From: a virus
Taxonomy: Duplodnaviria > Heunggongvirae > Uroviricota > Caudoviricetes
Virus record (IMG/VR): IMGVR_UViG_2660238215_000013
Span: 1 to 6,491 of that record
Direction: 5' to 3' (one strand)
DNA length: 6,491 bases
Part shown: in pieces, positions 3,726-5,339 of the stretch
How the letters are laid out: every line of letters starts with the position of its first letter
Numbering within the stretch: the first letter of the stretch is position 1
Notes under the pieces: generated by a model
What the model was told of the DNA's origin: nothing
Databases searched by the model: none
What the model saw: only the letters and a program-made list of their open reading frames with translations
Translations under genes and position numbers: made by a program

Positions 3726-4595
3726 CTATACGATTCGACGTTCAGCTGCGGCGCGATGCCGTACAACCTGCGTGATAATGTATGCTGGATTCCCCAATAC
3801 ACCATTAGTTTCTTTGACTCTTTTTGTCACATTCACTACAAAAAGATCATCTTTACTGAATGACGCTTCGTTTAAATTTACTCGCTCAAGAAAACCAGCA
3901 TCCGCCATCTTAACCTTTACATCCTCGCCGTCTGGCAATACCATCCTCCAATCTGTATCGGAAGTAAAGCTCAGCTTAGAAAACTTGACGTTTAAGGTCA
4001 ATGAGTCTTCATGTGTATGTTGTACAACCGTATTATTCACTTTTTTAAAAGAAACAGATTGCTCTTGCGAAATAGAGACAATCTCCTCCCCACTTGAGTT
4101 TTTTACTCTAAACGACGAGTTTTTTTCAGTTTGCAGAGGAGTGTGTACCAATTTACTCATTTCATTGCGGATCGTAGAGTTTGTAACGAGCTTTTGTACG
4201 TCATTTGAACACTCAAATCGCTCATTATCAACAACAAAAGTCGCTCGGTTATTGGCTTCATCTATAACAACCTCATGTGGCTTTCGCCCTCGCAACCATT
4301 CTACAACCCCAACCAAACTCCCAGCACTTGCGCCGGTGGCAACAGAAAGCCCCAAGAGTTGCAAAGTAGATAAACTACCCAAAACAGAGACAAGAACAGT
4401 AAAAGATCCTTCCTGAATTGCCTTAATACTAACCCTAGTTGTTGCAGTCTCACCGTGGATAATTTTCTCTGCATTATCAATCAAATTACTTAATGAAGAC
4501 AGAGCATCACCAAGCATTTTAGCATCGATCTCATTATTCGCATATGCATCCCCAGCATATGCAATCTCAAGCTCTGTTACCTGTTGGTCGGTCAT
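3726..4595 (-). CDS. Gene A of the candidate cassette: ~289-aa protein with soluble N-terminal ~60 aa, a ~35-residue hydrophobic segment (FTVLVSVLGSLSTLQLLGLSVATGASAGSLVGVV; one long TM or a TM hairpin), and a ~190-aa C-terminal domain. No family recognised
   Basis: ORF track gives 3726..4613. The ATG at 4595-4593 has GGAG 9 nt upstream, whereas the ATG at 4613 has only A/T upstream, so 4595 is preferred (4613 remains possible). 870-nt frame in low-GC DNA, coupled to B and C downstream. Confidence 0.75.
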   Translation of the reverse strand: MTDQQVTELEIAYAGDAYANNEIDAKMLGDALSSLSNLIDNAEKIIHGETATTRVSIKAIQEGSFTVLVSVLGSLSTLQLLGLSVATGASAGSLVGVVEWLRGRKPHEVVIDEANNRATFVVDNERFECSNDVQKLVTNSTIRNEMSKLVHTPLQTEKNSSFRVKNSSGEEIVSISQEQSVSFKKVNNTVVQHTHEDSLTLNVKFSKLSFTSDTDWRMVLPDGEDVKVKMADAGFLERVNLNEASFSKDDLFVVNVTKRVKETNGVLGNPAYIITQVVRHRAAAERRIV

Positions 4596-4714
4596 GAAGT
4601 TCAACTCCACCATAAAAAATATGCAAAATAATTAACAGTATTTTCACTTTATGGCGGGTGCGTTGAGGATGCCTGACACATCAGAGGTGGCGGGGGTTTA
4701 CCCCGCCTGGTCTC

Positions 4715-4870
4715 TTACTCCTCAGGTTCGTAAGCTGTGAAGACAGCGACCTCCGTCTGGCCGGTTCGGATTCGTACCTCGCAGAGGTCTTTCCTCGTTA
4801 CCAGTGCCGTCACTATGACGGTTAAACAGATGACGATCAGGGCGATTAACATCGCCTTTTGCTGCTTCAT
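4715..4870 (-). CDS. hokD: Hok-family type I toxin (51 aa), HokD/RelF-like
   Basis: MKQQKAMLIALIVICLTVIVTALVTRKDLCEVRIRTGQTEVAVFTAYEPEE: single TM plus the conserved Hok C-terminal motif. Matches my recollection of K-12 Qin HokD. AAGGAG 9 nt upstream of the ATG at 4870. The ORF-track entry 4715..4927 is the same frame extended 19 codons upstream. Confidence 0.85.
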   Translation of the reverse strand: MKQQKAMLIALIVICLTVIVTALVTRKDLCEVRIRTGQTEVAVFTAYEPEE

Positions 4871-4991
4871 AGCCTGCTTCTCCTTGCCTTTCGGCGCGTA
4901 AGAGGCTAACCTACATGTGCAAGTCATAGATATGGCCTCAGATTAATGTTAAGCGTCTTGCCGGACGCGTAATGTTAACTGGGGCTTTTCT

Positions 4992-5027
4992 CTATCTGCC
5001 GTTGGTGTTCATGCCCGAGGCAGATAG
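4992..5027. repeat. 9-bp inverted repeat (ctatctgcc ... ggcagatag) with 18-nt spacer in the hokD upstream leader region
   Basis: 4992-5000 is the exact reverse complement of 5019-5027. Could be a structured RNA element of a hok/sok-type leader. Confidence 0.6.
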
Positions 5028-5085
5028 CCTCAAGCACCCGCAGCAATTCTACTTAACTCTCGCTTTACCGCAAACCGTTTTTACC

Positions 5086-5107
5086 CGATATGGGAATTCC
5101 CATATCG
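5086..5107. repeat. Perfect 22-bp palindrome CGATATGGGAATTCCCATATCG centred on GAATTC
   Basis: Reverse complement equals itself. Lies 9 nt downstream of the 34-aa peptide stop and ~215 nt upstream of the hokD start. Candidate dimeric-regulator operator or a 9-bp-stem RNA hairpin in the hok leader. Confidence 0.9.
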
Positions 5108-5115
5108 TAATGAAT

Positions 5116-5220
5116 TCAGTTCCCTAGTCGATCCATCAAAAACACAACCAGGCAGTAAACGCCCACAACAGCAATAACAGCCAGCGCACCTTCCATTGCC
5201 AGTGAAATATCATCCGACAT
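5116..5220 (-). CDS. Small hydrophobic peptide ORF (34 aa), predicted single-TM peptide; not in the ORF track
   Basis: Hand translation: MSDDISLAMEGALAVIAVVGVYCLVVFLMDRLGN, stop TGA 5118-5116. AGGAGGG immediately upstream of the ATG (5220-5218). Confidence 0.45.
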   Translation of the reverse strand: MSDDISLAMEGALAVIAVVGVYCLVVFLMDRLGN

Positions 5221-5255: not shown

Positions 5256-5339
5256 TTACCCCCACCGACAAATAACATATACTAAAAAAGCGATAGCCAT
5301 AGCAACGCCTGTAATTGCAAATGCTTCAGGCCAGTTCAT
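5256..5339 (-). CDS. Small hydrophobic peptide ORF (27 aa), predicted single-TM peptide; not in the ORF track
   Basis: Hand translation: MNWPEAFAITGVAMAIAFLVYVICRWG, stop TAA 5258-5256. ATG 5339-5337 overlaps the stop of the DUF551 gene as ATGA, with AGGAGG 7 nt upstream. Confidence 0.45.
   Translation of the reverse strand: MNWPEAFAITGVAMAIAFLVYVICRWG

Follow-up and report, generated by a model that had tools for sequence, protein, structure and literature searches.

A hok locus in a lambdoid prophage region very probably forms a complete hok/mok/sok type I toxin-antitoxin cassette of the hokW/hokD type

In the hokW-sokW system of prophage Sp5, HokW is a toxic protein located in the inner membrane, and sokW, which is transcribed from its own promoter, neutralises HokW with a partial dependence on RNase III and Hfq; the hokW and sokW RNAs have both been seen by northern blot (PMC8621323). 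The inactive full-length form of hok mRNA is defined by two pairings, one between the tac element at the 5' end and the fold-back inhibition element fbi, the other between ucb and the Shine-Dalgarno (SD) sequence of mok (PMC9841398). A recent large-scale preprint survey found hok to be enriched in prophages.

The window, i.e. the whole stretch of 6,491 nucleotides of viral DNA analysed here, carries on its minus strand, from about 5051 to 4654, what is very probably a type I toxin-antitoxin cassette, namely a complete hok/mok/sok system of the hokW/hokD type that a lambdoid prophage carries as an accessory gene. This identity is based on sequence homology, on the finding that no element is missing, on the potential for pairing and on covariation across the family; transcription, processing, toxicity and biological role of the window cassette would follow those of the characterised relatives. 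A preliminary description of the sequence had suggested that the hok locus retains its cis-regulation and that the plus strand yields an antisense Sok-like RNA, and this proposal is supported by homology, a covariance model, folding and covariation. In the alignment to the hok/sok family, which had been recommended as a check, tac, ucb, dcb, fbi, the 3' hairpin and the promoter, body and U-tract of Sok could all be placed (Table 1). The impression that the locus is unusual did not hold. Positions 4654-5051 are 94.7% identical over 407 nt to the mokW/hokW/sokW locus of phage 933W and VT2-Sakai (phage records), which is already annotated as such in 933W, and megablast found the cassette in 4726 of the 5426 complete E. 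coli genomes, where its PGAP name is hokD; the hits number roughly 11,000. Among the matches listed, at least 10 genomes have 100% identity over 404-407 nt; the genomes with identical copies came from cattle, bovine faeces, veal, beef and one human isolate. E. coli 13E0780 and F6294 are two strains with an identical cassette. E. coli genomes contain a median of 2 and a maximum of 10 cassettes of this type. Additionally, PHROG 251, 'MokW-like host killing', matches the mok ORF (7.5e-33). The locus type is already described, and the window cassette is an ordinary member of a known, experimentally characterised kind.

Table 1. Positions of the hok/mok/sok elements in the window, listed along the hok mRNA and followed by those of the antisense gene.
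Feature	Position	Strand	Basis or remark
Possible hok -35, TTTGCG, 17-nt spacer	5069-5074	-	3 of 6 matches
hok promoter -10, TAGAAT	5046..5051	-	by homology
tac, hok mRNA 5' end, GGGTGCTTGAGG	5028..5039	-	pairs with fbi; predicted +1 at about 5039
Leader stem-loop, CTATCTGCC...GGCAGATAG	4992..5027	-	95.1% paired across 68 sequences
ucb, mok anti-SD, AAGCCCCAG	4979..4987	-	full-length fold, Rfam structure, covariation; element definition PMC9841398
mok SD, GAGG	4936..4939	-	8 nt upstream of ATG 4927; GAGGC conserved in aligned loci
mok reading frame, 70 codons	4715..4927	-	in frame with hok, common stop codon; start homologous to mokW and mokC
dcb, GCCTC	4902..4906	-	mapped Rfam structure; mok SD/dcb helix 89% paired
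hok SD, GGAG	4880..4883	-	AAGGAGAAG nearly invariant across the family
hok toxin gene, 51 aa	4715..4870	-	Pfam HOK_GEF, identity to K-12 HokD
TAC codon (Tyr47) in CTTACGAA, possible TadA A-to-I editing site (Tyr to Cys)	4730..4732	-	inferred only
GC-rich stem-loop right after the stop codon	4689..4707	-	helices 90-99% paired, compensatory changes
fbi, fold-back inhibition element, CCTCAACGCACCCGC	4654..4668	-	pairs with tac; family homology ends just after
Sok promoter: -35 TTGCCT (4884-4889), 17-nt spacer, -10 TAACCT (4907-4912)	4884..4912	+	homology
Sok-like antisense RNA, about 71 nt	4919..4989	+	mapped from annotated sokW of 933W

Re-reading of hok revealed no frameshift and no premature stop. 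The encoded protein scored 81.6 bits against Pfam PF01848 (HOK_GEF; cut-off 22) and is identical to K-12 HokD at 51 of 51 residues, with 92% identity to HokW, 82% to HokC and 43% to Hok of R1/R100. The query for the R100 comparison was what we take to be the R1 hok sequence, and the R100 hok CDS is identical to it. The narrower NCBIfam Hok subfamily model gave 48.5 bits against a cut-off of 73, and the NCBIfam Hok models, being sub-threshold, were therefore left out of naming; a PADLOC run on Hok gave no match. The motif CTTACGAA is nearly invariant across the family, and its Tyr47 codon is a possible candidate for editing by TadA; the hokD mRNA of K-12 is reported to be edited at about 6% (PMC12214031). 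Two plus-strand ORFs, 4737-4901 and 4972-5127, were rejected as genes, as they are unsupported and run antisense to the conserved hok CDS and leader.

The covariance-model search suggested in the preliminary description matched RF01794 to 5039-4865 with 108.4 bits (gathering score 59, E = 1.1e-24, model positions 1-157). The match is in hok-sense orientation with its end at the hok AUG, and the model is oriented in the same way at hokC/sokC of K-12 and hokW/sokW of 933W. Since the matches at these curated loci are hok-sense, the Rfam "sok" model describes the hok-sense leader, i.e. the complement of Sok. Model position 1 aligns at 5039, and when this position is taken as +1, the transcribed leader comprises about 169 nt (5039 to 4871) instead of the roughly 245 nt estimated before; the remaining part, 5040-5115, contains the hok promoter and an unrelated 22-bp palindrome. 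A T-A-x-A-A-T hexamer located 6-7 nt upstream of a conserved CGGGTGC is nearly invariant in 69 loci (consensus GGTATAAT). A generic sigma-70 promoter/terminator scan of positions 4550-5200 returned no promoter and no terminator for hok or sok. Because both -35 hexamers are weak and the scan flagged neither promoter, the hok and Sok promoters were assigned by homology only.

The repeats reported before were found again. The 9-bp inverted repeat of the leader is formed by CTATCTGCC (5027-5019) and GGCAGATAG (5000-4992); in 7 of the 9 pairs both sides have changed, and in a repeat search it extended to 20-nt arms (4981-5000 and 5019-5038). The direct repeat TAATGTTAA is present at 4944-4952 and 4970-4978, where it flanks the GCGTC/GACGC hairpin, and the GC hairpin after the hok stop codon is present as well. 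The latter probably represents the 3'-terminal protective hairpin of the processed (truncated) hok mRNA, a role taken from R1 (PMC9841398). The most diagnostic repeat had been missed, namely a perfect 8-nt inverted repeat at 4654-4661 and 5034-5041, 372 nt apart, that corresponds to the end-pairing of tac and fbi.

The 70-aa ORF in front of and including hok consists of a 19-aa extension and the 51-aa Hok. Both the in-frame ATG (4927-4925) and the GAGG (4939-4936) upstream of it are present as previously stated, and the alternative offered then, a mok-like coupling ORF, turned out to be right, as position and frame are those of annotated mokC and mokW. In mokC of K-12 and mokW of 933W the start lies 57 nt upstream of hok, in frame, and the stop codon of hok is used; the arrangement in the window is identical. 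The remark that classical mok is in a different frame is correct for the plasmid type of R1/R100, with the R100 mok starting 58 nt upstream of hok in the +1 frame, but not for mokC and mokW. An ATG with a GAGG(C) SD occurs at the homologous position in 63 of the 69 aligned loci, which come from many Enterobacterales. Relative to hok, mok is most commonly in frame (34 loci), followed by the +1 frame (21) and the +2 frame (8), and the +2-frame ORFs are short (19-20 aa). Since the reading frame opened at this ATG differs between relatives, all three being in use, conservation concerns the mok start site and its SD, not the peptide, which fits a coupling frame better than a functional N-terminal extension.

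When the full-length RNA (5039-4652) was folded, the minimum-free-energy structure had -158.9 kcal/mol (z = -7.07) and no shuffle folded as well. In this structure tac, GGGTGCTTGAGG (5039-5028), pairs with CCTCAACGCACCC (4668-4656), the tac/fbi helix being made of 5' GGGUGCUUGAGG and CCUCAACGCACCC (fbi, 4668-4656), and GCCCCAG of ucb pairs with CTGAGGC at the mok SD. Covariation was evaluated over 69 aligned loci, which were taken from Escherichia, Photorhabdus, Pantoea, Kluyvera and others. In the tac/fbi helix, columns 84/553 hold CG 31 times and UA 27 times, and in the ucb/SD helix, which is 89.5% paired, columns 165/215 hold GC 27 times and AU 26 times. For the full-length structure 76.4% of cells were paired, compared with 40-45% when the partners were slid by 1-3 columns, and the observed covariation score was reached by 0 of 500 shuffles. 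The structure of the truncated form, with the tac/ucb and mok-SD/dcb pairings, was paired at 68.3% versus 38-45% when slid. The window sequence is able to form these pairings as well, and the tac/ucb and mok-SD/dcb pairs are conserved at 79% and 89%, respectively. Accordingly, ucb would be bound to the mok SD as long as the mRNA is full-length and to tac once it is truncated; in the truncated form, dcb would pair with the mok SD and give rise to the Sok-target hairpin. The minimum-free-energy fold of the 3'-truncated RNA showed a local 5' hairpin in place of the tac/ucb stem, and for this reason we infer the refolding switch from complementarity and covariation, not from thermodynamic prediction. 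Altogether, the listed features exceed chance (Rfam E = 1e-24, full-length z = -7.1, Sok-strand z = -5.0).

On the opposite strand, the sequence predicts an antisense Sok gene with its own promoter and complementarity to the mok start region. The Sok RNA would consist of a single-stranded 5' tail of 15 nt (4919-4933), a hairpin of 53 nt (4934-4986) and a U-tract; its fold reached -29.7 kcal/mol (z = -4.96), and no shuffle folded as well. The -35 and -10 hexamers of Sok are identical to those of 933W/Sp5, in which mutation of nucleotides around the sokW -10 by Takada et al. abolished antitoxin activity (PMC8621323). From position 17 on, the Sok body is identical to SokW; in the 5' tail, 9 of the first 16 nt differ. 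On the plus strand the two copies of TAATGTTAA pair with each other via two G-U wobbles and thereby extend the inner GCGUC/GACGC hairpin, whereas on the hok strand the same two positions are C-A mismatches. This wobble pairing stabilises the hairpin in Sok by about 10 kcal/mol relative to the hok mRNA. The inner hairpin is an 18-nt insertion that is common to hokW/hokD-type loci and absent from hokC and R1.

The surroundings of the cassette are those of a lambdoid prophage early-to-late region. The window contains DUF977, DUF551, the hok cassette, three ORFs of unknown function, DUF1367, YbcO and a Q-like antiterminator (DUF1133 / Phage_antitermQ), and farther downstream three tRNAs and the sRNAs STnc100 and AgvB are located, a layout that is typical of STEC prophages. 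In agreement with the preliminary description, no relE-sized ORF precedes hok; upstream lie two tiny ORFs and the DUF551 gene. At the other end, the minus strand beyond 4654 showed no intrinsic terminator, i.e. no hairpin plus T-run. The similarity to otherwise identical cassettes breaks off at 4654/4653, right after fbi. Exactly at this break point six relatives have CCCGC-TTCG-GCGGG-T6 and another one a similar but diverged CCTAC-TTCG-GCGG-T8; R100 has a different terminator of a GC-rich stem plus T-run after fbi. An intrinsic terminator at this place is present in R100 and in most hokD-type relatives. The next ORF begins 59 nt downstream of the cassette end and is a candidate defence gene (PDC-S42/LAPAL).

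A mechanism for the cassette can be modelled on R1 hok/sok and on hokW-sokW of Sp5. A constitutive promoter would produce a stable hok mRNA from near 5039. In the full-length RNA, tac would be paired with fbi and ucb would mask the mok SD, allowing neither translation nor binding of Sok. Slow trimming of the 3' end back to the GC hairpin would strip off fbi, after which tac would pair with ucb and the mok SD with dcb; the Sok-target hairpin would form and ribosomes could start at the mok ATG at 4927. Reading through mok would then open the hok SD and lead to synthesis of the 51-aa membrane toxin. The unstable Sok RNA from the opposite strand would use its single-stranded 5' tail to pair with the mok start region, block translation of mok and hence of hok, and trigger cleavage by RNase III. 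Once Sok synthesis stops, Hok would be made; possible causes are loss of the element or prophage induction, the latter having been shown for Sp5.

Two other readings of the locus concern what it encodes and whether it works at all, and both appear very improbable. The real product could be a 70-aa protein from ATG 4927, a toxin with an N-terminal extension that is functional in itself, and indeed this ATG lies in the hok frame, follows a good SD and opens an ORF that ends at the stop codon of hok; moreover, the in-frame arrangement of 34 of the 69 loci comes with a recognisable RLASY.PKGKE motif. Yet the same ATG position serves the +1 and +2 frames in other relatives, the conservation of RLASY.PKGKE is explained by the dcb element, the Sok promoter and the hok SD that the same nucleotides carry, and HokW made from its own ATG alone is already toxic (PMC8621323). 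The locus could also be a decayed, unregulated and silent hok remnant of the kind represented by K-12 hokD, which is reported to be inactivated by rearrangement (PMC12214031); the PGAP name hokD, the identity of the protein to K-12 HokD and the missing terminator after fbi all point in this direction. Unlike K-12 hokD, however, the window has the whole leader, with 108 bits on the covariance model, and the following elements are intact: the hexamers of both promoters, tac, ucb, the SD and start codon of mok, dcb, fbi, and the hairpin and U-tract of Sok. The locus contains no IS element and no frameshift. Since the 933W/Sp5 locus is likewise without a terminator and nevertheless functional (PMC8621323), a terminator after fbi is a variable feature, the absence of which does not disqualify the cassette.

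A regulated hok/mok/sok cassette whose mok serves as coupling frame remains the preferred reading. With the same mechanism it might have a role other than maintenance of the element, either as a lysis-timing helper upon induction, as proposed for Sp5, or as an abortive-infection or defence module together with the neighbouring candidate defence gene, and we consider this a serious possibility, though somewhat short of an even chance. In Sp5, mitomycin C causes sokW to disappear and HokW to appear in a RecA-dependent manner, and deletion of the locus halves phage release (PMC8621323). R1 hok/sok is reported to reduce plating of T4. Counting against the preferred reading, the chromosomal hok loci tested in earlier work are reported not to have mediated post-segregational killing. 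On the other side, the sequence offers nothing to tell these roles apart, a preprint found no enrichment of hok near defence systems, and NCBIfam calls the downstream ORF a putative phage structural protein.

The part of the cassette that varies most among close relatives is the start of Sok. Positions 4919-4934 form the most divergent 16-nt stretch of the mRNA, with 40% divergence against a pairwise mean of 10.7% in a small sample of 11 close relatives. Co-resident loci with different tails occur in Shigella flexneri SFBU1023 (three) and in E. coli ECMA0423 (two). Within the limits of this small sample, the divergence of the tail suggests a diversification of antitoxin specificity. A bolder reading, which we regard as rather doubtful, holds that the Sok tail and mok start region are under diversifying selection as a specificity determinant and that, after loss of the terminator at a recombination junction, the hok mRNA runs into the PDC-S42/LAPAL gene. 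If so, hokD/hokW-type cassettes that co-exist in one genome would stay orthogonal without cross-neutralisation, the window would carry a specificity allele distinct from SokW, and read-through into the PDC-S42/LAPAL gene would alter the timer set by 3' processing. The Hok diversity preprint analysed the peptide alone.

As a discovery the locus is of low value: its type can be found annotated in the record of 933W, was studied experimentally (PMC8621323) and was covered by a large preprint survey. Automatic annotation gives just "hokD" and omits mok and sok, and confusion with the deregulated K-12 gene is therefore possible. The window provides an example of an intact hokD-type cassette, with a Sok 5' tail unlike that of SokW, and the cassette could be used for testing antitoxin specificity between co-resident prophage cassettes.

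Compared with known systems, the toxin itself is that of K-12 hokD (relF, Qin), and both loci lie in lambdoid prophage remnants upstream of a Q-like gene. K-12 retains the hok SD, the 3' hairpin and most of fbi. As the preliminary description had stated, relB-relE are found immediately upstream of hokD in K-12. In front of the hokD ATG, similarity to the window extends for no more than about 16 nt, and hence K-12 hokD is without promoter, tac, ucb, mok and Sok gene. A relBE-hokD operon of the K-12 type was rejected for the window, which contains no relBE and has the full leader; the protein sequence alone matches. With hokC/mokC/sokC (gef) the window shares the order of the elements and the in-frame mok, and the RF01794 scores are comparable (118 bits for hokC, 108 for the window). 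SokC, at 59 nt, is shorter, and the 18-nt inner hairpin (GCGTC...GACGC) responsible for the TAATGTTAA repeat of the window is missing from it; the hokC copy of K-12 is disrupted downstream by IS186.

The regulatory logic is also that of R1/R100 (parB), with tac/fbi, ucb, dcb, the mok SD, the 3' hairpin and a Sok promoter overlapping the hok SD region as common elements that are backed by shared covariation. R1/R100 differs in the frame of mok, in a longer leader stem-loop and in a clear intrinsic terminator after fbi; it is plasmid-borne, and its role in post-segregational killing has been demonstrated. The locus of 933W/Sp5 agrees with the window in the 70-codon in-frame mok, the 51-aa hok, the 71-nt antisense RNA, the 18-nt leader hairpin insertion, the Sok promoter hexamers, the Sok body and the lack of a terminator after fbi, and both are located in lambdoid prophages of STEC-type E. 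coli. Differences are found at 4 of the 51 Hok residues, where the window matches HokD instead, in the 9 of 16 nt of the Sok 5' tail and mok start region, and in the N-terminus of mok, which reads MTCTC in the window and MLNTC in mokW. The genome position differs as well, with the window cassette lying between the DUF551 gene and the Q region and that of 933W near the right end of its record.

Matches to RF01794, the Rfam covariance model named 'sok antitoxin', were found on the hok/mok strand (window 4865-5039; hok loci L003, 602-754, and L001, 1522-1696), opposite to the annotated antitoxin RNAs sokC of K-12 and sokW of the Stx2 phage 933W, and in the window the match stopped at the hok start codon. 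A hit to this model thus locates the leader of hok, with the antitoxin encoded on the other strand. In a comparison of 11 close relatives, no 16-nt stretch varied more than the predicted 5' tail of the antisense RNA Sok, with 40% divergence versus a mean of 10.7%. The tail also differed between cassettes residing in the same strain, namely those of Shigella flexneri SFBU1023 (L010, L012, L020) and of Escherichia coli ECMA0423 (L007, L019). Variability of the Sok tail may reflect diversification of antitoxin specificity. Coordinates of the individual features are compiled in the table.

Features of the hok cassette and of other parts of the window
Feature	Position	Strand	Details
AgvB anti-GcvB sRNA	453-512	plus	Rfam, 59.9 bits (gathering score 56)
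STnc100 sRNA	513-721	minus	Rfam model, 170 bits
Three-tRNA cluster	831-1082	minus	anticodons Arg-tct, Arg-tcg, Met-cat
Q-like antiterminator gene	1240-1896	minus	DUF1133 and Phage_antitermQ match
289-aa ORF	3726-4595	minus	starts 59 nt downstream of fbi
hok Tyr47 codon TAC	4730-4732	minus	inside CTTACGAA
Predicted single-stranded Sok 5' tail	4919-4934		also mok start region
Perfect 22-bp palindrome	5086-5107		CGATATGGGAA / TTCCCATATCG; between stop codon of 34-aa ORF and hok promoter
34-aa ORF, very small, hydrophobic	5116-5220	minus	MSDDISLAMEGALAVIAVVGVYCLVVFLMDRLGN; upstream of hok
27-aa ORF, very small, hydrophobic	5256-5339	minus	MNWPEAFAITGVAMAIAFLVYVICRWG; upstream of hok

When 69 hok loci were aligned, the stretch CTTACGAA around the Tyr47 codon turned out to be nearly invariant at the nucleotide level. 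A-to-I editing has been reported for the hokD, hokC and hokE mRNAs of K-12, with a level of about 6% for hokD, and gives Cys at the equivalent of HokB residue 46 (PMC12214031). The sequence of the site edited in these K-12 mRNAs is intact in the window.

A search of genome contigs also recovered hok loci that match E. coli or R1 types completely or almost completely from assemblies labelled Veillonella, Acinetobacter, Xanthomonas, Ferruginibacter, Streptomyces and Oscillibacter (L015, L025, L032, L067-L069). Most of them sit on short contigs. Contamination, or plasmid or phage DNA placed in the wrong bin, is a more probable origin than true hosts.

Upstream of the hok promoter, the palindrome is common to the window and strain 13E0780 (L002); it might form a hairpin resembling a terminator or serve as a binding site for a protein. 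The two small ORFs beyond it gave no match in Pfam or PHROG, and the 34-aa ORF is labelled hypothetical in RefSeq. Elsewhere in the window, two prophage sRNA genes, STnc100 and AgvB, lie back to back at 453-721; at the AgvB site the related AsxR model scored below its own threshold. The tRNA cluster is located directly downstream of the Q-like gene, an arrangement typical of Stx-type lambdoid prophages.

The 289-aa ORF downstream of the cassette matched the PADLOC phage-defence candidate PDC-S42 (1.1e-46), the NCBIfam entry 'LAPAL motif-containing putative phage structural protein' (score 208.7 bits, cut-off 60) and phrog_3243, a PHROG without known function, and a Pfam search of this ORF returned no match. 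Co-transcription with hok is possible, because a generic scan of 4550-5200 found no intrinsic terminator between the two.

The 3' edge of the cassette is sharp. Compared with L002 (5400-5440) and with L007, L010, L013, L015, L019 and L021, similarity to otherwise identical hok cassettes stops at 4653/4654, exactly past fbi (CACCCGC), the 3' element of hok mRNA that is predicted to pair with the 5' tac. This edge looks like a recombination junction. In most relatives a terminator made up of a hairpin and a T-run comes next, whereas 933W and the window lack this terminator and each runs past fbi into a different, unrelated sequence.
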